A stretch of DNA of 63,989 nucleotides, the filler included, from Porpidia crustulata (Eukaryota): NCBI GenBank assembly GCA_964255105.1. It is 4 parts of 4 records of this genome, joined end to end, with 100 filler letters (N's around TTAATTAATTAA, not from the genome) between each part and the next. Parts side by side here need not be neighbours in the genome. Positions count along the whole stretch, not along the records: positions 1 to 16,433 come from CAXUWE010000259.1; 3 more parts are not named here. The stretch is one strand, 5' to 3'. A model generated the notes under the pieces. The model searched no databases and was not told the DNA's origin. It saw only the letters and a list, made by a program, of their open reading frames with translations. Below are positions 1,327 through 15,854 of the stretch, piece after piece. The position numbers and the translations under genes were made by a program. How positions within the stretch are numbered: position 1 is the first letter of the stretch; each line of letters starts with the position of its first letter.

Positions 1327-2945
1327 ATGCGAAGAGTTGTTGTCACAGGACTAGGAGCAGTAACACCACTGGCAGTTGGTATACTAACCAAATCAATGTG
1401 CCCGCATGAGTGCTCACCATTCCCAGGTGTCCGACGCACATGGAAACGTCTGCTAGAGGGCCATAGCGGAATCGTATTTCTCAGCGATTACCCAACCCTC
1501 GACCCAACAGCCCAAGCATGGACGCTACAAAATTGTATGGTCGCCGGGCTTGTACCACAGGAGGAACGAAGCAAAGATGGCGGATGGAAGGCTAGTGACT
1601 GGCTGAAACGTGATGTGAGTATATACTGCCAACGCTACTTCGGCGGAGCAGAGTGTTGACACTTACTAGGACGAACGCCGAATGTCGAAATTCATGCAGT
1701 ATGCAATAGCTGCTACTGCCGAAGCGCTCAAAGATTCCGGTTGGCTGCCAAAGAATGATTATGAGCAGGCAGTAACGGTGGGCATAGCTGCTGAAATCAC
1801 CTATGAGCTCACCCAGCTCACGAAATCCAGGGCGTATGCCTAGGCTCGGGTATTGGTAGCTTTGAAGAGATCTTTGATACTTCGATTAAATACGACAAGC
1901 ATGTGAGTCTCCGACCCTGTTCTCGCAACAAGCTACAAACCTCCTGACCTCGTTTCAGGGTCCCAAGAAAGTCTCCCCCTATTTCGTCCCTCAACTCCTC
2001 ATCAACCTTGCCGCCGGTCACATCTCCATTAAACACGGCTTCAAGGTCCTTCCCCCCACCCTCTCGCTATTGCCCCTGCAGTCTCTCTTCTGCCTAGTTG
2101 CACCATCCTGAATACGCTGCAAACCCTAGGGACCTACCCACGCAGTGACAACAGCCTGCACAACTGGCGCCCACTCTATCGGCGATGCCTCCCGCTTCAT
2201 CGCCTTCGGCGACGCAGACGTCATGATAGCCGGTGGCTCCGAATCCTGCATCCACCCCCTCGCCTTTACGGGATTCGAGCGATCACGCTCTCTCACCACT
2301 TCTCGTTATCAGAATGCGCAGCACGCATCTCGGCCCTTTGACAAGACTCGCGACGGTTTTGTTATTAGCGAGGGTGCTGCTGTGCTTGTGCTTGAAGAAC
2401 TTGAGCATGCACTCGCGCGGGACGCACCCATATATGCTGAAGTCGCCGGTTATGGCTGCTCCTCTGACGCTCACCACATTACCGCTCCTACGCCGTCCGG
2501 AGACGGTGCGGTTCGCGCTATGCGTCTTGCGCTCAAGAACGCCAATTTGCCGCCTGCCAAAGTCGACTATATCAACGCACATGCTACCTCTACGCCGCTG
2601 GGGGACGCAGCGGAGAACAGAGCAATCAAAACCCTAATGTTGAGCAGTCATGAAGGCAAACTCGCTCCCAGCGAAGTCAACGTGAGCAGCACCAAAGGCG
2701 CCGTTGGACATCTCTTGGGTGCCGCTGGGGCGCTGGAGGCAATCTTCAGCGTCTTAGCCATCAGGCACAATATACTCCCTCCGACGCTGAACCTGAGGCA
2801 GACGGACGGCGACGATTTTGACCTTAACTACGTACCGTTAGAGGCGCAGGAAATGCAGGTGGATGTAGTATTAACTAACAGCTTCGGCTTCGGCGGGACC
2901 AATGCGAGTTTGTGTTTTAAACGGCTCGGTGTTGCGCGGCATTAA
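1327..2945 (+). CDS. CEM1: Mitochondrial 3-oxoacyl-ACP synthase (KAS II-like), multi-exon
   Basis: [10 protein letters not shown] start, TTACTTG catalytic Cys, [33 protein letters not shown]; several GT-AG introns (e.g. 2046-2129). Head-to-head with MRPL17 across about 185 bp. Confidence 0.93.
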
Positions 2946-3220
2946 ATCACTGTCCTAGATTCAAGTAGCTGCCCGTGCTGTCGTGTTCTTTCTCGTCCGA
3001 AGCTGAAATCGATATATCGATATCTACGAGAAGGTGGACAAGAGCGTGCCGGACATCTTCTGAGACCCACACAAATGTTGTGTCGTACGTCGATCCGCAT
3101 ACCCGTAGAATTCAATGCACTACCAACATTCTGTCACAAACATCTCTGCAGCCCAATAGTCTCATATTCACATACCAATATCATGACACCAAGCTCAACA
3201 TGTACCAAGAGGTGAACACC

Positions 3221-3494
3221 CGCAGGGAGTGCCAAAAGTCAGTGGAGTCAGCCCTACCCAGGCATCTCCAGTCCCATCGACACATTGAATAGCTATTTAC
3301 ATGAAGCCATCATCATAAATCGACTTTCAGAGGCCTATCATCAAATTTAATTAGACGAGTGCATCGCCAGGGCATTCTTGAATGCGTGCCCGTATTTCCT
3401 TCATGTTAATTTAGTCTCATTCGAATTCGATATTTTATTGAGACTGAAGATGCCTGGGTAGGGCTGACTCCACTGACTTTTGGCGCCCCCTGCG
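3221..3494. mobile_element. MITE-like foldback element, 274 bp, 56-bp terminal inverted repeats
   Basis: 3221-3276 matches the reverse complement of 3439-3494 at 52/56 positions, with a perfect 37-bp core (GCCAAAAGTCAGTGGAGTCAGCCCTACCCAGGCATCT). Flanked by ACC on both sides (possible 3-bp TSD). No transposase. Confidence 0.75.
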
Positions 3495-3676
3495 ACCCAA
3501 CGTAACAAGATTAAGTAAACATTTTCATATTATACCCGATACAGCGTTTTTTAATCTGTAATTTATTTTTAGGTGTTTTGGTATTCTTTTCGGGCCGAGG
3601 CACAGTTGCCATGTGTATCAACAAATAACAAATACAAACAGCAACAACTTCTGTTCTCCTCGCTTTCACCCTCAAC

Positions 3677-4340
3677 ATGAATATTCAACCTAACTTTGAG
3701 CGGGTGTCCGAGGCATTTTCAACCGCCTCACAAGAGATCGTACGTATCCCAAATGTTCCAAGCTTCGATAACGGGCAGCGTATTCTCGAGGCAATTGAAG
3801 CCTTGACCAGAGCTGTTGGGAGCCTCCGATCAGACATGATCAGTCTTAGAACCGATGTGAACGGCCTCCGAACTAATATGAACGGCCTTCAGACCGATAT
3901 AAATGGCCTTCGAACCGAAACGAACGGCCTCAGAACCGATATGAACGGCCGCTTTGAGCTACTCGAACTTCGCATGAACGCAGAGTCAGTTTATTGTCTG
4001 CTCTGATCTAACCTTTTACTATACTAACATTGCTCTTATAGTGCGATCAACACGACAGCTAGACTCCACAACTCCTATATCACAAGCCGAGAGACTCCGC
4101 TTCATGCATTGCGCGATCAGCGTAACAGGACTATAAATGAGTTTCCCTCGAACATCTCTGAGCTGATGCGGTTGACAGGTAGATACAACCCTAATGGTGG
4201 GATTTTTCTGTCGAATTAACTGAGTGATAGGCCCTGCTCTTTCGAATCTGCTCGACCGTTACGGATTATCCACTGATGGAAATGCTGAAGTCAAGAAAAG
4301 AAGGCTCAAGCAGTCTATTGGGATCATTATCGATATCTGA
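3677..4340 (+). CDS. 184-aa coiled-coil protein with Mug135/DUF1773-like C-terminal domain (Tdk1-like architecture)
   Basis: Exons 3677-3984, 4042-4178, 4231-4340 (introns GTCAGT..CTAAC..TAG and GTAGAT..TTAAC..TAG) join in frame, 555 nt. C-terminus ARLHNSYITSRETPLHALRDQRNRTINEFPSNISELMRLTGPALSNLLDRYGLSTDGNAEVKKRRLKQSIGI. Confidence 0.8.
3827..3952 (+). repeat. Coding 21-bp tandem repeat, about 6 units (heptads)
   Basis: RSDMISL RTDVNGL RTNMNGL QTDINGL RTETNGL RTDMNGR; DNA unit approximately MGA ACC GAT ATG AAC GGC CTY. Confidence 0.92.
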
Positions 4341-5219
4341 GAAATTAAGAATTTGCTTGAGCATAGACAAAGACTCTAGATTTAGCGGTCGAAACCTCAG
4401 AAAGCAGATTAAGTGTGTAGATAATGGGATTAGAGAGCTTGCTACCACGCAGAGCGTTGCCTCAGGGCCATCAGCAACTGGGCCGAACATAATCGACTGG
4501 AATCTCGATCCGCGACCTGAGGGGCAGAAGAAAAGGGGCCAGATGCACATTCTACTTGGAGTTTTGGTTACAATGAAATAAGAATAACGCTAATGACACT
4601 TTCTGTTTGCATGGACGGTTATGTACACCACATTGGACTACAATTCTTTGAGAGCCGGATTATGCGATATGATCGGTGATGAGGGGTGATCTCTAGGTAG
4701 ATCTTCTAAAGACTTCGCTGAAACGCGAGGACCATTCATATTTGAAAAGGGAGACAAAAGGTATTATGATCTATCTTCCCCCTTAGCCTACTCCCAGGTC
4801 CGCTTCCTTTACGCTTGCCCTTTGACTAGCCCGCTGACTCCGAAGCTTGTCCAGCGAACCAAGTACCCTAGACCCAAGGAAAGTGACGAGGACAAAAACA
4901 CCTCTGTCAGTGATGGCGGCGGAGAGAAATCTAGATCTACGCGTTCCCGTTGGCCAAAGCTTTTTGTTTTCCCGTTCCTTGTCTGCCCAAAAAGTAAGAA
5001 AAGGTAGCTCGGCAGACTACAACATTTGCGCCCGGGCACCAATAACGCCCGCAGCTTAGCTTAGACGCCTGAGAACTTTCTGGTACATAAGAAAGCTATC
5101 AAGGAGAAAGTCTATCACGAGAACACCCAATGACACCATATCCTTTTAGTCAAAGTCGTAATGTCGTAGCGTAGAAAAAGTCATCATGATGAACTGCTTG
5201 GCATGGCTTTGTGGCCACC

Positions 5220-8200
5220 CTAAGACGTATGATATTCATCGCTCGTTGGGCTGGTCGGAGACTCCACGGTAGGAGCGGCTCGACGAGCTTCCTCAAAGTT
5301 CTCTCGGGGTGGGAGACTCTTCGTTGTCGTCGTACTCACACTGATGGCCGACGTCGGTCTAGCATTGTCTGCATTCACAGAACCGTAATCTATAGACACA
5401 TTTTCGTCTTCAATCGCTGACGGTACTGAAAGCTTCGACTCATCCCCAATCGCCGATCTCCGGACCTTCAATCGCTCTTCTGGGGACATGCCGTGCCATT
5501 CGGCTCCAAACGTAATCACCGACGCTTTTTTGCCATGGACAGTAAAGCTTCCGGCGCCTCTGGATAGACCTTCGTTCTCCGTCACAGATGAAGCACCATC
5601 TTCGGTCAGACCAGCGCTAGAGGCAGAGTCTCTGCCCTTTTTGCTTCGGTGGGGGGCTGGGACGTGGGACTCTCGGAGGGTACGATGTAGGCTGCGGCGA
5701 ACCTTGTTTCTACTTTCATTAAACTCATTATCGAGTGATCTGGCGATTTCTCGCCCGTTATCTTTTTCTGCGTCGCTTGACGTCTCAGGACGCTTTCCTT
5801 TTGGTGAAGGAGTATCTGGCGCTACCAAGCCAGCTTCTTTGAGGACTTTCTGTTCATCGTCATCGACACTTGGAGTTGGTGTTGCGAGCCTTGTTGCCAA
5901 CTCAGAAACTTTATCATTACCTCGATCACTGATCAAAGATGATTGATGTGTTAGAATATTTTCGGGGGAAGACGCCAGGCCATGGCTTGATCCTGATTTC
6001 CGCGATGTCCTCGTCGCTTCGAATGTCAGTGGTGGAAGTTCCCAAGAGCCTTGTTTCCGGTGGCTCCCAGCAGGCGGAGATTGCAGAGGCTGGAAGAATC
6101 TGTCTATGTCAAAACTCTTGGCCTGCGATGGCTGAGTAAATGGGCGAGCGGCAGCGTCTTGTTGCTCTCTCAGCTCGAGGCTACCCCTCTGGTCTAGAGC
6201 AGATTCATTCCTAACCAGTTCTTGTTTCCGAGGTCTCATATCCGTTATAGTCGTGTCCGATGGGGTCGGGGATTGGAAAGAGCGCTCAGTCTCGTTCTTC
6301 ATCTCTTCTTTAAGGTCCATGGCAAGAATATCCCTATGACATCGCGTCCGCCACAGCTCTACCCGGACCCATTTGATTCTTGCAGCCATGCCCCCAGCGG
6401 CAAGCACGACCTGTTCCCTCGTCTTGTTCTGAATAGGAGCAAGGATTTTTAAATGTCTTGCATTCCTGAGTTGGCCATCCAATTGTTTACCAGCTTCAGT
6501 GAGTAATTCGTCTGCTTCTGCTATTTTCTGGCGCATTATCTGTCGTCTCGCTAACTGTATCTCGCGAGCAAGTTCAATGCTGATCCCATTACTTTGTATG
6601 ATGACGTCGCCTGTTGCAGTCTGAATGGATTCTGCGGTCCTATCGGAGTCCATCCGTCGTACACCCCGAGCCCTCTGCCCTTCTTGACCCACCCCAACTA
6701 GGCCTCTCATACGGACACCAGCACTTCGAAATGCAGAAGCGTAGTTCAACTTTGCAAGCCAATCATTCATCTCTCCCTCAGTATCAGCAAGGATAATCTC
6801 TTCAAAGCCGCCATGACGAACGAAGATAAAGGCGTTCTTGTGCTTCTTGTAGGTACCGTCAACCAAGGCTACAGCATCTTCCGTGGATATCAAAGCGTCC
6901 GGCTTGAACTGTTCCAGCGGTGGCCTAAAGACAACGGGCGTACTCGCAAAGCCTAGTCGATGGTGTGAATCATGCTGGTACATCAGGGTCTTGACCCACG
7001 CAGTGTTGCGAAAGAAGTAGAGCTGAGAGCCGGTCAAGACTGCTCCCCACTCTTGCCAAGGGGATCGAGCTTTCTTTTTCTTCATATCCTTGCGCCAAAG
7101 AATACCTACCTTTGTGACTTTAATATCAACAACTCCATGGTGAGCTTCAGCAGGGTTTGTTGTGGTCTCGGGTGATTTGAATGCATCTGGTCGGGATCTG
7201 GAGGATACAATCTGAAGGACACCAGATTTGAAGAAAGTTTTGTGCAGATCAGCAAGATTCAAGGAGGGGGCCGTGCCAAGATAGCTATAAGGGTCGTCTA
7301 AAGTCATGGTGTCTTTGAACGATGGTCTAAGAGTCTCCAACTTGTTATCCAGGATAAGCGTGTAAGGGTCAACAGGTTCTCGAGATCGTTTCTTCAAAGA
7401 ATCCGTGCTAGCTTTCGCGAATACTTTCTTCCTTTGTTTATGGGCGATGATACGCTCACCATTTATGTCGACATCGTCTTCGACATGAATGAATGGAGTG
7501 TACGAAATGTTGTCATAGAAGCATTCAAGGATTTCATCAGCGACTCCTTGGCCCTTGGCATTTTTGGTATAGTCATTTTTCTGCATTTTGTGTTTGTTGT
7601 TCTTATTGAATACATCCGTATGAAGTATCAATATAGAGAAGGAGATGAAGTATGCCTCGTCTAGAAAACATGAGTACATGTCATGAAGGGTAAGGATTGC
7701 ACTGACCTGGGGAAGCGTATATGCCAGGATTACACTCATGATACCGATTTGCAAATGCCTGGAGAACCCGATCAATCTGCTGCGTTTCTTTAGGGAGCTC
7801 GACCTCCATTAAGAGCTTTCTGATAGACATATCCAACGGGTCTCCGAAAAAAATGAAGCTGCGCATGTAGCTACGTAAAACGTTCCTGGAAAATTCATCG
7901 TCCGACTTCGATAGGATAATCGCAACAACACCGCGGCTTACAGCTTCTTCGAGACGTGCCAAATATTTGGCTGGAGTATCTCCTTCTTGTCGTTCTGGAA
8001 CTACGGCAGGTTCTCTAGTCAGGCTGAACGAATGGTGCTTGGAACCACTATTCGAGATTGGCGTACCAGGGGCACCTGTCTGGCTCGAACTTTGCCTAGT
8101 GTAATTGGGTTCAGATCGCAAACGTGAAAGGTTGAAAAGACCCCCAAGACTTGCTCTCCCAGTAGTCGAAGAAGACGTCCTAGCTGACTGAGGCAGAGGC

Positions 8201-9465
8201 GGAGTGGGCTGATCCTCGTCACCAAACTTCGAATTCTTGGTTGAGGATCTACCTCGCTGACCAAGACGCGCTGGGGGATTCAAGACAGGCGAAGATCTAC
8301 CAGATCGTACGGATGTGGTGGAGTCCCTTCTAGTTGCGAAAGCTAAGGATGAAGGGAGATGAACTTTATGCGACGGTGACGGTAGTGGTGAGGGAAGTCC
8401 ATTAGATCCGCTACCAACGGGATATGGAGAACGAGCTGCTGTGACTGGACACGTTCTCGTGGGAGAATGACGACTTGGTGAACCTGAGGGTCGACCGCTT
8501 GTCGATACGCGAGGAGTCAAAGTCGAGCTGTCCAATGGTTCTGAAGGCGGAATCTTTACTGGTAAGGGAAATAAAGGTCCTTTCTTTTGTTTATTGCGCC
8601 TTGGAAGGCGGAAGAATGTCGTGGTGGTAGAGACAGTGTGGGTCGTTGTAGTTGTCGCGTACAGCCCATGTTCCCCGACACTCCCCTCAGACCTGGATGA
8701 CTCTGATAATCTTGGAGGAAAGATAGGCAATGCCAATGTAGAGTTTATGTCGTCACCGTAAGCTGGAGGATCGTGTGTATCTCGAGATCGTTTAAGTTGA
8801 TCAAAAGTCACCCTGGATGCTCGAGCGCTCTCAGTTGCGGCATTGGAATCGGAGAGCCTAGGTTGAGAACCCCTATCTGAAAGTGATGCCCGGGGTTCAG
8901 TCGAAAGTATTTGCAGCTTTTCTTGGGTCTTCCGACGGCGAGGAAAAGTGAACGTTGATTTTTTCTTCGAAGGTTTTTCGAAGGGGTCTATAGTTGGTGC
9001 TGTCGGTGCTGTAGTAATGATCGCAGGTGCTACGCTCAGTTCGTTAGTATCAGGATTTCGGTCGTGCAGGACTATTGTCAACGCCGCGTCAGAGAGATAC
9101 TCACTTCCAGGCATGGGATGTGTAGGCCTATTTGCTTGTTCCCTGGCGGTTTTTGAGAGCTGTGAATCCGAAGCATGTCTGAATTTGAGCATACTGAACC
9201 GCTGCTGTCTTGGATTACGCTCTCGTAGTGCTGGACTTGACGGTCTCACGATTGACGCACCGTCTACCGAGACATTGGTCGGCTCAGCAAGTCCTTGAGC
9301 AGTCGGAGGAGGCTCTGGAGTTGGAATGACGTTCATCACCATCGCATTGGCTTCATGAGCAAAGTCATTCACACTTTGGCCCCTAAGTTGGATAGGATCT
9401 ATTGTGCTGTGCCTGCGGAGGCTCCCGTCGGACGATCTGTTGACACGAAGACGGCTCCAAGGCAT
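5220..9465 (-). CDS. Sec7 + PH domain Arf guanine-nucleotide exchange factor (Syt1-like)
   Basis: Sec7 motifs ELPKETQQIDRVLQAFANRYHECNP and YFISFSILILHTDVFNKNNKHKM; PH domain KVGILWRKD...WQEWGAVLTGSQLYFF...WLAKLNYA. Intron 7661-7706 joins the two ORFs; a probable in-frame intron lies near 9030-9103. Confidence 0.9.
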
Positions 9466-9901
9466 ATTGATAGAAGGCTTGTGGGAATGTCATTGGGAAC
9501 GAGGCTGGATTGATAGATAAATGTTGTATACGTGTTTGCGATGAGATCATCTGTGTAAGAGTAGCTCGCAGGGCTGACGACTGGTGGATAGGGACATAGA
9601 AACGAACGGTAATGAATGACAAGGTTGAAGACAATGGTCACGATATTGAAAGTACTATTCCGAGCTTGCTGAAGGATCAGCTCTCAAAGAGACTTCGTAC
9701 TCAAAGAGTAGATATCTCTTTCCCAGGACTCCTTACGGACATCTTCACCGCTAGACTCAGCTGGGTTGAGCTAGTTTTTTGTCCTGAAGAGCTCTAAGGC
9801 AACAATATCAATATCTTATTGTCCAATCTACTACATCTAGCTAGGTAGCGTGGTAGCTACCTAAATGTTATGATTGTGAAACAGCTTCTCAAGAGATCAT
9901 C

Positions 9902-11788
9902 ATGCGCTGTCTATATAACCTATTGACCCTTTCATCATCCATTCTTATATGGACTTTGAAAGCCACCTCCGCAAGGTCCGCTATCGTGCCCGATAACCTA
10001 CAACAACCTTTCTCCCTACCTTTCCCAATCCCCCACGTCCCACAGTATGCGCACGTCGAAAAGTCTCACAATGACAGACGATTACTCGTACGAATCAGGA
10101 ATCGCGTCGTTCAAGCCCTTTGGAAGATACCTATACAGCAGCGGCTGAGCTCAGGTAGCCCTGAATCAGCCTTGAGAAGTAGCCCTCCTGCTCACCTCCT
10201 AGCAAGATATGGAGAAGATCTTGTGCTTCGATTCAAGATCCGTTCGGTTGAGGAAGCAAAAGCTCTTGCTGACGCAATCAATGTCCTTTTCTTGGATGTA
10301 TGGGAGTTCACCACGGAATGGGTTGATATCAGACTGGCGAAGGATGTTGTAAGACTTACACCCAAACAATGTGGTGCTTTGAGCTCTTCTGACTTTCCCT
10401 AGGTTCCTTCCTTACTTGGCCTACTGCCGACATCGCTACAGCATGCACATTCTCCATTGATGCACAACCTAGCCCAAGCCATCTTTGAATCGTACCCATC
10501 CCTCACCATTGTTGACCCTTCTCCACCATCCCACGATGACCGCAATGCCTTCAGCCCAACTCTCCGCCCCTCAAGCTCACAAACGAATATCTTCTTTCAA
10601 AACTATCAACCCCTCTCAGTCATAATACCTTGGATGCGCCTGCTCCAATCTCTCTTCCCTTCCCATGTCCGTATGATCAATATCGGCCTCTCGTACGAAG
10701 GTCGCGATATCCCGGCATTTCGTGTTGGCGTCCATCCCACCAATGCTGAAAGACCTTCTACACCGCGAAAAACGGTCATCATCGCTGGCGGCTCTCACGC
10801 CCGTGAGTGGATCAGCACGAGCACTGTCAACTACGTTGCGTACTCCTTTATCACTGTTTATGGAAAGTCGAAGTCTATGACTAAGCTTCTCGAGAACTTC
10901 GACTGGGTGTTCATTCCCACACTCAACCCAGATGGCTATGTCTACAGCTGGGAAACCGACCGCCTTTGGCGAAAGAACCGCCAAGAAACGTCGCTCCGCT
11001 TTTGCCGTGGTGTGGACCTTGATCGAGCCTACGGATTCGAATGGGACGCCGAGTCCACTCGAAACAATCCCTGCTCCGAAAGCTTCTCCGGCGATGGACC
11101 CTTCCAAGGTGTCGAGGCCCGACGCTTCGCAAACTGGGTGCGCAACGAGACCGAGCACAACAATGCCCAAATTGTCGCCTTTCTCGACTTTCATAGTTAT
11201 TCCCAGCAAGTCCTCTACCCGTACTCATACTCCTGCACCTCTGCGCCGCCTTCCCTCGAAAACCTTGAGGAATTGGCCACAGGGCTTGCAAAAGCCATTC
11301 GCCTCACTAGTGGCGCGGTTTATGGTGTCACATCTGCCTGCGAAGGCAGTGTCAACGTCAATGACCAACTCCCTCCAACACATTCAGACTCCGCGGGGAC
11401 CAAAGGCTCCAACGCCGTTCTTCCGCGCATGGAAAGCGGCGGCGGCAGCGCCCTCGACTGGTTCTATCACGAGTTCCGCGTACGCTACGCCTACCAGATC
11501 AAATTACGGGACACTGGGTCGTATGGGTTTCTGCTACCGAGCGAGAATATTGTGCCAACGGGCAAGGAGGCACTTGGGGCGGTGGAATATTTGGGGGAGT
11601 TTTTGTTGGGAAATAAGGGTATTGAGAAAGAGAAGGGAAAGACAGAGGAGGCGCGTGGTAGCAAAGAACTTGCGAAGACTAAGGCATTGGAAGACAAGGA
11701 AGCAGAACTGAACGGGGATGCAGATCCGGATGCGAATCTAGGTGCTGAGGATCGGGGCCAGGAATCGAGGAGGCGGAAGAGGAGATGA
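9902..11788 (+). CDS. ECM14: M14 zinc carboxypeptidase-like protein Ecm14 (pseudopeptidase)
   Basis: Signal peptide and propeptide, intron about 10349-10402, motifs [38 protein letters not shown] has Lys where active enzymes have the catalytic Glu. Confidence 0.92.
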
Positions 11789-13286: not shown

Positions 13287-15854
13287 ATGCAGCAACAGGA
13301 ATCTTCAACGGAAGACTCGATATTGAATTCTGCTGGCCGCTATCCGAACTCTTCGCCATCATCGAATGTTAATAATGGCCACACAGGCTTTTCCCACGGC
13401 GCTTACACCTCGAACCAGCAGAGTGCAGGAGGGTATGCCGATAGGCACCCGCGCCGGGCCAACATGTCAATCAATACCGGTGCATACAACCGATTACCCC
13501 ATCAGAGTAATGACATGAGTACCCCAGGGACAGCATTTGACATGAATTTCACACCGCTTCTACCGTCCCAATTGCTACTCGGCAGCCCATTCCAAACAGG
13601 AGCACCGTCAGCTTTCGCATCTCCTCAATTCTCCAATTTTGGCGGCTTCCAACAACAGAATTCGACGGCACACCAGCAGAATCAACAAGCTCCCATGGGC
13701 AGTCCGATTCAGGCTCAACATACCGGCTTATCCCCTCAGTTGTATCAGAGCATGATTTCGCCGTCGAACTATGGTGTACAGCAATTCATGAGTGGGCCAC
13801 AATCACCAACCGGTTCATTCGGCAACATGGGAAATCAAACGTTCGGTGGAAATACGGCACAGATGCAGATGCAATCGGGGATGGCGAATTTGAGTAGTCG
13901 GACCGTGTATTTAGGGAATATACCGCCTGAAACATCGGCTGAAGAAATTCTTGGACATGTCCGCAGTGGACAGATTGAATCTGTTCGCCTTTTGCCTGAC
14001 AAGAACTGCGCTTTCATTTCTTTCCTTGATGGCAGTTCGGCTACTCACTTTCACTCCGACGCGATATTGAAAAAACTCTCCATTCGTGGTCAGGATATCA
14101 AAGTGGGCTGGGGAAAGCCTGCTGGGGTACCAACCTCTGTGCAACTTGCAGTGCAGCAATCTGGTGCGTCAAGGAATGTATATTTGGGGAACCTGCCGGA
14201 AAACGTCACTGAAGCTGAGCTTCGAGAAGATTTGGGCAAATTTGGGCCTATCGATACCGTCAAGATTGTCCGTGAAAAGGCAATTGGCTTTGTTCATTTC
14301 CTTTCTATTGGTAATGCTATCAAAGCTGTCTCTCAGTTGCCTCAAGAACCCAAGTGGCAAGCACCTCGACGAGTATATTATGGTAAAGATCGCTGTGCCT
14401 ATGTCTCAAAAACCCAGCAACAGAACGCGGCTCAGTATCTGGGCATTGCACCCGGCTATGCGCATGTGCTCAACGGTGCAGACAGAGATCTGATATCGAA
14501 CGCGCTAGCCCAGCAATCAGTTGCCGCAGCAGCTGTCGCAACAACGGCTGGAGGAGTGAGTAATCTTGGTAATCGTACTGTGTACCTGGGCAACATCCAC
14601 CCAGAAACGACAATTGAAGAAATTTGTAACGTCGTCCGTGGTGGCCTTTTGCATCATATACGCTACATCCCTGATAAGCACATCTGCTTTGTCACTTTCA
14701 TCGATCCTACCTCTGCCGCATCATTCTATGCGTTGAGCAACTTGCAGGGACTCATGATCCATAATCGTCGTTTAAAGATTGGTTGGGGCAAACATTCTGG
14801 TGCGCTTCCACCAGCGATCGCTCTGGCTGTTAGTGGTGGTGCTTCTCGCAACGTGTACATAGGGAATCTGGACGAGTCGTGGACCGAAGAGCGTCTTCGT
14901 CAGGACTTTTCGGAGTATGGCGAGATCGAGCTTGTCAACGCTCTTCGAGAAAAGAGTTGTGCTTTTGTCAACTTCACCAACATCGCCAACGCCATCAAGG
15001 CGATCGAGGCAATGAGAGGCAGAGAGGAATATTCACGGTTCAAGATTAATTTCGGCAAGGACCGTTGCGGAAATGCTCCCAGGCAAAACAATCATAATAA
15101 TACGCAATCGCCACAACCTCAGCAACAACAGGCTGGTATGCAAGGCCGAGAGCGTGTTGACTCGCCACAAAATAGCAGTATCCAACAGACATTGAGTCTC
15201 AATAGCTCCGTCAGCCCTACTCGACAGATGCCGCCTTCGGGGCCAGCATCGACTGGTTCTTCTTCATATAACGGCTTACAAGCAAGCCAGCAGATCCATG
15301 CGCCAACTCCGTCTGCGATTCTCAATGCCGGAAGCAATAATCCTCTTACCATGTTCCTCAACCAGGTGTCAGCGCAGCATGTTCAACAACAGCAAGACTC
15401 CCAGCAAGCAGACCCTTATTCCATTGCCACTCTCCAACAGCAGCAGCAACAAGTCTTGGCCAACCAACAAGCAGCTTTGTACGGAACCTCGAGCAACGAA
15501 GTCAACAATCCGATGCTCGAAGCGTCTCAGCAAAGCCACAGGAGCTCCTTCGGTCAAGGCATGAATGGCTTATCTACTGGAGCATCGACCGTTGGTGGAC
15601 TGCTAGCCCCAGCAAACGTACGTGCCCAACACGCTCGTACGGTCAGCTTGCCAGTATTCTCGCAGGAAAATCAAAATAATGGCCAGGCCCAGGGCCAGGG
15701 TCTGAACCACAACCAGCATCAACAGGGCCAATCTCAGCAAACCCATCGTCACCAGCAAAGCAGCTTCTCCGGCATGACTGGCTTTGGTGGTTTTGGTAAT
15801 GTCGCATGGGGCTTGAACGGTTGGGCCGAGGAGGAGATCCCTGGGACTCAGTAG
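13287..15854 (+). CDS. Four-RRM RNA-binding protein, S. pombe Nrd1 / S. cerevisiae Mrn1 family
   Basis: Four RRMs ([42 protein letters not shown] and FGKDRC ends) with Q/N-rich flanks. First in-frame ATG near 13287; probable 5'UTR intron about 13015-13092. Confidence 0.9.

Follow-up and report, generated by a model that had tools for sequence, protein, structure and literature searches.

What kind of protein is encoded by the small gene that starts at position 3677 of a 63,989-nucleotide (nt) stretch of the Porpidia crustulata genome (assembly GCA_964255105.1; the whole stretch, filler included, is called the window below), and does it belong with Tdk1, the meiotic driver of Schizosaccharomyces pombe? 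An earlier note on this DNA had proposed a Tdk1-like killer gene, with a heptad stalk and a Mug135/DUF1773-like domain. On balance, we consider it probable that the protein is a short, divergent member of a fungal superfamily that carries the stalk and C-terminal domain of Tdk1 (Mug135_C, DUF3294). It is filed here as a variant related to Tdk, Mug135_C and DUF3294 and not as a member, because formal Pfam membership fails and the N-terminal features of Tdk proteins are lacking.

Judged from its sequence signals and homology, on which splicing and expression status rests, the gene is real and intact. From an ATG on the plus strand, three open exons join to 555 nt, that is 184 codons and a stop, with canonical donor, branch and acceptor signals (Table 1). 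Splicing is required, because intron 1 contains an in-frame TGA and the length of intron 2 is not divisible by three, and the C-terminus obtained after splicing is conserved family sequence (E 4e-36 to the relative P0010 and 3e-34 to P0018). The intron positions are confirmed by relatives whose gene calls read through introns there, many of the unnamed relatives being prokaryote-style calls that run through one or both introns. All positions under strong conservation in the family alignment are retained in the window copy. The translation begins with an N-terminal part of about 45 residues, whose counterpart in the relative P0017 was modelled as one helix plus a loop, continues with the heptads, and ends with the pattern ARLHNS..TPL..L..FP..LMRL..L..LL..YGL..G..KKRRL..IG. 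In agreement with the earlier note, we thus recovered an intact three-exon gene of 184 amino acids (aa) at 3677-4340, and its short N-terminal segment, about six heptads and C-terminal pattern were all seen in translation and repeat scans.

A separate observation concerns the introns of many relatives (among P0023-P0028, P0012 and P0031-P0042). Intron 1 (19 codons, hydrophobic 'SAYFSPFSNFIIMTFYSS') is open in frame there and seems conserved in an exon-like manner, and the same often holds for intron 2; the window differs from these read-through relatives by the stop in intron 1 and the frame shift arising from intron 2. Retained-intron isoforms are conceivable in these relatives, in a sample that is biased in that only open read-throughs are called as long open reading frames (ORFs).

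The link to Tdk1 is carried by predicted structures. Using AlphaFold2 with a 40-row alignment, we modelled the two relatives P0010 and P0017 (mean predicted local distance difference test, pLDDT, 92.8 and 86.9, respectively). The window protein is 46.8% identical to P0010 over window residues 64-184, 37% identical to P0018 and 33% (32.6%) identical to P0017. Both models consist of a long helix extending from the heptads across the motif ARxYNS, followed by an extended stretch and three short helices. When the P0010 model was searched with Foldseek against 350,542 Protein Data Bank (PDB) chains, the two cryo-EM chains of Tdk1 came out on top: 9ja6_A, of the tetramer, was the best match (117 columns, E 0.033, prob 1.00, TMq 0.68), and 9ja5_A, of the Tdk1-Bdf1 structure, was second (E 0.13). 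With VIA, the same model was superposed on 9ja6_A at Z 9.6 and a root mean square deviation (rmsd) of 4.5, placing 123 of 124 residues on Tdk1 217-344; the second Tdk1 chain followed at Z 8.3 and the next match at 5.2. When 48,161 representative chains were scanned independently of Foldseek, only the two Tdk1 chains reached a Z of at least 8, the next match (Z 5.7) covering 41 helical residues only. For P0017, the two Tdk1 chains again took ranks 1 and 2 in Foldseek, and VIA gave Z 9.1, rmsd 3.5 and 112 aligned residues on Tdk1 227-344, with the second Tdk1 chain at Z 8.0 and the next match, at Z 7.1, restricted to the N-terminal hairpin. The Tdk1 match spans stalk, linker and head, is unique in the PDB, and recurs, with the same two chains on top, in two relatives whose mutual identity is 40%. 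In both models, a head with the fold of Tdk1 268-340 comes directly after an alpha-helix.

Searches of the ESM Atlas led to related families. By features, the best named cluster, which has 253 members with PF08593 on 18% of them, scored 0.92 and 0.90. In the structure-based search, the head of P0010 retrieved DUF3294 and Mug135_C clusters with template modelling (TM) scores of 0.73-0.92 by query, among them a basidiomycete cluster labelled 'meiotic expression up-regulated', 58% of whose members carry PF08593; SAP clusters reached only 0.48-0.54. The likeness to DUF3294 (PF07957) extends over P0010 residues 45-123, which align at TM 0.84/0.85 and so meet the bar of that tool, and the DUF3294-aligned clusters also carry PF08593 on 10-18% of their members. 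P0017 matches PF07957 weakly (E 0.093), scoring 12.9 bits against a gathering score of 20.6 bits. Going by the models, remote homology of the family to the stalk and head of Tdk1 is likely. The Tdk1-like layout that the earlier note had claimed therefore stands as far as the order of short N-terminal segment, stalk and C-terminal domain and the structural match in two relatives are concerned, and falls short in the PF08593 score.

The stalk of the window gene is repetitive, and its length changes between relatives by multiples of seven residues. Tandem Repeats Finder detected a 21-nt period with 4.9 copies at 3849-3950, and a separate repeat scan gave five registers spanning 3822 to 3968. Measured between conserved anchors, stalk length followed the series 25+7n (25, 32, 39, 46, 53 or 60 residues) in 16 of 21 alignment rows, the window stalk having 60 residues, and departed from it in the remaining five (42 and 63-71 residues). 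P0024 and P0025, which are 98% identical, differ by one heptad, and P0036 and P0037 by three. The P0018 group uses another heptad, RFEQVDK, and P0017 and P0029 have no repeats. Two further proteins of unrelated appearance, P0005 (205 aa) and P0007 (545 aa), contain near-identical LRTDVNGLRTDVNGL heptads without the family head, one of them named 'chromosome segregation ATPase' by the Joint Genome Institute (JGI); their likeness probably reflects convergent repeat composition.

Such stalks are predicted to associate. A model of three P0010 copies scored 0.88, against 0.55 for the best of three controls; the job used three copies, against a two-copy calibration, and did not use the alignment. 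In that calibration the oligomer mark was reached by 21 of 30 solved one-chain pairs and by none of 23 solved single chains and, for eukaryotes, by 17 of 29 pairs, but by only one of those seven that had no older solved relative, and by none of 30 single chains. The trimer runs agreed in at least 96% of contacts with partner pLDDT of at least 89, and the contacts were in register, involving I/V and L positions every 3-4 residues plus some head contacts. This model, made with three copies only, thus supports a parallel coiled-coil oligomer, as in Tdk1.

A number of observations weigh against tying the window protein to Tdk1, or to its killing activity. The modelled proteins are relatives of the window protein, the structure-based identity to Tdk1 is 11-12%, the Foldseek E-values are weak (0.03-0.6), and, by the warning that comes with the tool, a Z below about 13 can reflect a common arrangement for long helices. 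Heptads with I/V at position a and L at position d favour dimers in designed coiled coils. Among the run X1 contigs at a likeness of at least 80%, no second contig fell on the gene. At the sequence level, PF08593 (gathering score 23.8 bits) matched none of the three window exon pieces at E ≤ 10; the Pfam matches of these pieces were sub-threshold coiled-coil families and DUF7722 at E 0.034. It was equally absent from 12 of the 13 relatives with full Pfam tables, and the remaining one, P0017, has PF08593 as its top Pfam match at a sub-threshold 14.9 bits (E 0.032). When 40 family rows were scanned at E ≤ 1, PF08593 was outside the 25 commonest families, and precomputed annotation placed it on none of 34 family-profile matches. 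In the PDB, family sequence profiles failed to retrieve Tdk1 at E ≤ 10, and one family alignment returned coiled-coil noise such as apolipoproteins and tail fibres. Judged from its exon pieces and these relatives, the protein therefore falls formally outside PF08593, and the searches gave no sequence-level proof of membership. The earlier note had read the C-terminal pattern as a PF08593 match, which fails at the Pfam threshold; it had correctly named this accession as the Mug135 family (Mug135_C), and the sections of the Tdk1 papers cited here use the same accession.

Architecture adds to these objections. The window protein has 184 aa and Tdk1 357 aa and, as the earlier note had stated, the N-terminal region of about 45 residues is much shorter than that of Tdk1. 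No PP dipeptide occurs in the 184-aa window protein, and neither the PP motif, nor a predicted Tdk1-type nuclear localization signal, nor a recognisable Z-shaped N-terminal domain of the tdk family was seen in it; the Z-shaped domain lies outside the solved chains. In Tdk1, the N-terminal region is reported to be needed for autoinhibition and foci (PMC11551426).

What is known of Tdk1 and its family is taken here from sections of two 2024 papers and a 2025 preprint, which raise the possibility that genes with IPR013902, the InterPro entry corresponding to PF08593, form an ancient fungal driver superfamily (PMC11551426, PMC11551393, PMC12930445). As described there, Tdk1 is a tetramer whose stalk includes a dispensable repeat region, residues 120-226 (PMC11551426), and DUF1773, which is PF08593, corresponds to Tdk1 residues 268-340 in work that also reports the Tdk1-Bdf1 structure, PDB 9JA5 (PMC11551393). 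Tdk1 binds the BET protein Bdf1 in a groove between its stalk helices. Bdf1 dependence is not family-wide, since the active drivers tdk210 and tdk203 are Bdf1-independent (PMC12930445). The preprint characterises the tdk family by a Z-shaped domain and a PP motif and reports internal repeats in tdk genes; of 93 tdk loci, 49 are pseudogenes, some in tandem pairs, and 44 are intact (PMC12930445). For wtf4, it mentions a report that a change in repeat number alters compatibility (PMC12930445). On the basis of InterPro, these sections count 478 proteins with IPR013902, spread over 150 reference proteomes out of 1,430 and absent from all 832 Pezizomycotina species (PMC12930445), and state that the DUF1773 domain is absent in Pezizomycotina (PMC11551393). 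Supplements aside, our literature searches yielded no description of a Tdk-like family in Pezizomycotina or lichens.

Set beside this background, the window family resembles Tdk1 (formerly Mug135; 9JA5, 9JA6) in a long alpha-helical stalk that leads straight into a small C-terminal head, and both Tdk1 and the tdk genes in having internal stalk repeats. It is set apart from Tdk1 by the sub-threshold Pfam score, the low identity and its origin in lichen-forming Pezizomycotina. With wtf, Spok, Spk-1, het-s and rfk-1 it shares only the idea of a compact single-locus killer, and the sequence, Pfam and structure searches made here revealed no sequence or fold relation to any of them. No match of any kind pointed to Spok, het-s, wtf or NLR systems, and the idea of a connection with them was dropped.

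Relatives of the window protein are small (about 140-230 aa) and were found in lichen-forming Pezizomycotina and Arthrobotrys. Among the longer proteins of a word-indexed collection, exon 2 (45 aa) gave one candidate and no scored match. Searched against 1.84 billion representatives, it retrieved 12 relatives at E ≤ 0.001; exon 1 retrieved an unnamed protein at 61% identity and Arthrobotrys flagrans DFL_005762, and a profile of the C-terminal domain retrieved 34 proteins at E ≤ 0.01 out of 743 candidates. The named lichen-forming sources are Candelina mexicana (two paralogues), Lepraria finkii, Gyalolechia fulgens, Gyalolechia sp. and Caloplaca ligustica, and A. flagrans is the sole named relative outside lichen-forming fungi. 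Precomputed annotation assigns the Pfam id PF28217.1 to P0018 and PF27742.1 to P0021 and P0022.

We found no second copy of the gene within the window. A scan of metagenome contigs with 13 closer rows as query yielded 11 loci, with 2-3 family loci per single metagenome sample, and none of the 11 loci carried the neighbour genes of the window. Flanking ORFs, scanned at four loci, differ for the most part and encode THO2 at L003, a GH3 glycosidase at L005, Tfb4, asparaginase and a tRNA U5-methyltransferase at L007, and DUF3435 and AAA_12 fragments at L010 together with the same tRNA U5-methyltransferase; this downstream gene is common to L007 and L010, which are orthologous loci. Seven copies were translated in three frames. 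Those of L003 and L005 were intact; the other five were disrupted, comprising L001, whose exon 1 is frameshifted, and the two tandem copies at L007 and again at L010. Because L007 and L010 are orthologous, the five disrupted copies represent three independent disrupted genes. The count of seven leaves aside L004, L006, L008, L009 and L011, which are 97-100% identical to partner loci; L007 and L008, for example, are 100% identical over 6047 nt in two assemblies. Between L003 and L001 there are 17 nucleotide differences in 517 exon positions and 8 in 111 intron positions. With 5 synonymous and 12 non-synonymous codon changes, the numbers do not suffice for a statement on selection, and L001 is in any case frameshifted.

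Some features of these loci are recorded for their own sake. The disrupted pair at L010 lies downstream of the DUF3435 (tyrosine-recombinase-associated) and AAA_12 helicase fragments (3635-4150 and 8032-8622). The tandem copies of L007 and L010 are situated near 10001-11002 and 14861-15162, with those of L007 about 4 kb further apart. At L005, some 7.5 kb upstream of the intact copy (2440-9917) contain no ORF of at least 130 aa in any frame, and this stretch may be degraded repeat DNA.

The site of the window gene could also be followed into a related organism, organism C (run X3). There, a 10,980-nt contig carries pieces of the MRP-L46, ketoacyl synthase and Sec7 genes in the same order and orientation as in the window, and the interval that occupies 4393 nt in the window is reduced to 2338 nt on this contig, with a joint from 2741 to 6509. 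Once the 2118 coding bases of both neighbours are subtracted, about 220 nt are left, so that the 664-nt gene and the adjacent miniature inverted-repeat transposable element (MITE)-like element cannot fit unless the Sec7 tail is much shorter. Barring such a shorter tail, organism C lacks the gene at the syntenic site. In run X2 the pieces were on different contigs, and window parts uncovered in X2 and X3 were excluded as evidence. A conserved single-copy syntenic orthologue, which the earlier note had named as the finding that would speak against a driver, was found neither among the 11 metagenome loci nor on the organism C contig. With its dispersed and tandem copies, many of them disrupted, its repeat-length polymorphism and an empty syntenic site, the family behaves like one that is dispensable and turns over fast.

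How the protein might work can be sketched from these elements. The conserved segment of about 45 residues would form an N-terminal helix and loop, followed by a single long helix. Tandem heptads (a = V/I/M, d = L), whose number differs from relative to relative by whole units, would make up the middle of this helix. Last would come a compact head at the C-terminus, its final two helices making a SAP/LEM-like helix-extension-helix with a basic patch. Stalks would zip into a parallel coiled coil and so present clustered heads, which may bind a nuclear or chromatin partner, as the C-terminal part of Tdk1 does.

Two accounts of the purpose of such a device compete. The leading specific hypothesis is a Tdk-like single-protein toxin-antidote spore killer, which we advance tentatively and hold to be rather unlikely. 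By this account the genes of the family could be toxin-antidote spore killers in which heptad number would set the oligomeric register, and with it which alleles neutralise each other, a proposal that we regard as equally doubtful; the window gene would then count among these elements, having inserted between two housekeeping genes. A conventional host role in association with chromatin is no less likely than spore killing. A host protein of Tdk1 ancestry and fold could have a normal role, for example as an oligomeric tether whose head sits on a DNA, chromatin or nuclear-envelope partner; it would not be selfish, and copy turnover would be that of a dispensable lineage-specific family. We give this possibility a substantial chance, if somewhat short of an even one. 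It is favoured by the two helices encoded by exon 3 (L..LL..YGL..G..KKRRL), which resemble the helix-extension-helix of SAP and LEM domains: after Tdk1, the next structural matches are SAP domains (3'hExo, DEK, Tho1, PIAS1 and Hcc-1; Z 3.0-5.2 over 42-65 residues, model residues ~52-122), and the LEM domains of emerin give weak profile matches (E 0.28-0.55). The helix-extension-helix and its basic patch (KKRRLKQ) suggest a nucleic-acid or chromatin contact. Unlike the Tdk1 match, the SAP/LEM likeness covers only ~35-65 residues, leaving out the stalk and the front half of the head, at scores far under those for Tdk1, and Pfam SAP had no match in the window exon pieces or in the relatives with Pfam tables. 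Conservation of the head is also good from Lecanoromycetes and Candelariomycetes to Arthrobotrys, in line with long-term constraint; in the window, an intact copy lies among housekeeping genes; and, of the 44 intact tdk genes of Schizosaccharomyces, only a few are reported, in the sections of the preprint cited, to have been shown to drive (PMC12930445). What a host role explains less readily is that five of the seven translated copies are disrupted, some as tandem pairs, that loci lack the neighbour genes of the window, that the syntenic site in organism C is without the gene, and that repeat length varies between near-identical alleles, since disruption, locus, absence and repeat features of this kind are given as signatures of tdk drivers in the preprint (PMC12930445).

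Both accounts presuppose that the likeness to Tdk1 is inherited. The combination of a long helix and a small helix-extension-helix head is structurally simple, and the family could have arrived at it by convergence, unrelated to Tdk1, Mug135_C or DUF3294. The low identity, the failure of any sequence profile to reach Tdk1, Z values of 8-9.6 within the range of the tool warning for helical proteins, and Foldseek E-values above 0.01 all agree with this. We judge it improbable in view of the extent of the match, which takes in 123 of 124 residues of the P0010 model and 112 of 140 of the P0017 model, with the part between stalk and head that is not helical among them, and of its margin over the next match (3.9 Z units for P0010 and 2.0 for P0017). 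Moreover, the same two chains head the lists for both relatives despite their limited mutual identity, PF08593 is the top, if weak, Pfam match of P0017, and the Atlas neighbours by features and by structure carry PF08593 or PF07957. Still less probable, and in our view very much so, is that the window copy is a non-functional relic or an unexpressed chance ORF. Many relatives are disrupted and the MITE-like element sits in the presumed promoter region, which speaks for this reading, but three open exons with canonical splice signals, a C-terminus that splicing restores to conserved family sequence, and the retention of strongly conserved positions argue against it.

A divergent relative of Tdk1 in these fungi would matter in several respects. 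Pezizomycotina are the largest ascomycete group, and the family would fill the IPR013902 gap there at the level of fold and architecture. It shares the genomic habits of tdk genes, with internal repeats, several copies, many pseudogenes including tandem pairs, and presence/absence differences that involve local loss, as seen in the relatives of the window gene. Fold and habits together therefore define a concrete and small set of candidate spore killers (~140-230 aa), in fungi whose sexual genetics are almost unexplored. A minimal version made of stalk and head would allow the function of the Tdk head to be asked about without the long N-terminal region, and a host function, if true, would inform the origin of Tdk drivers.

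Table 1. Features of the window gene and its surroundings (positions along the window).
Feature	Position	Strand	Description	Basis
MRP-L46 gene	311-1072	-	Neighbour gene	
Beta-ketoacyl synthase gene, 3' part	2130-2945	+	Upstream neighbour	PF02801 2e-38, PF00109 2.3e-25
MITE-like element	3221-3494		70-nt inverted arms, 3221-3290 and 3425-3494, 86% complementary	
Exon 1	3677-3984	+	Conserved N-terminal segment (QPNF...NVPSFDNGQRILEAIEAL) and heptad stalk; ends in phase 2	Translation, splice signals, alignment with relatives
21-nt tandem repeats	3822-3968	+	About six heptads, xD[V/M/I/T]NGLR	Tandem Repeats Finder, repeat scan, translation
Intron 1	3985-4041	+	57 nt, GTCAGT...TACTAAC...TAG; in-frame TGA at 4004-4006	
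Exon 2	4042-4178	+	End of stalk helix and first half of C-terminal domain (ARLHNSYITSRETPLHALRDQRNRTINEFPSNISELMRLT)	Translation
Intron 2	4179-4230	+	52 nt, GTAGAT...TTAAC...TAG; position common to relatives that read through	
Exon 3	4231-4340	+	Second half of C-terminal domain, SAP/LEM-like helix-extension-helix element (ALSNLLDRYGLSTDGNAEVKKRRLKQSIG), stop codon	Translation
Sec7/PH-domain gene	5220-9489	-	Downstream, convergent	PF01369, PF00169

The MITE-like element ends 182 nt upstream of the ATG. Its arms share a perfect 37-nt core, and it occurs once in the window. Its distance from the gene and the housekeeping-gene setting, both described in the earlier note, were borne out by the inverted-repeat, depth and neighbour-domain data. 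In run X1, the element had a contig depth of 132.6 against about 10 in the flanks, and loose ends were found at the element borders 3223 and 3492; because of this roughly 13-fold depth and the loose ends at both borders, we consider the element to be multi-copy. The same run also contained shorter variants of it (joint from 3269 to 3458) with many loose border ends.

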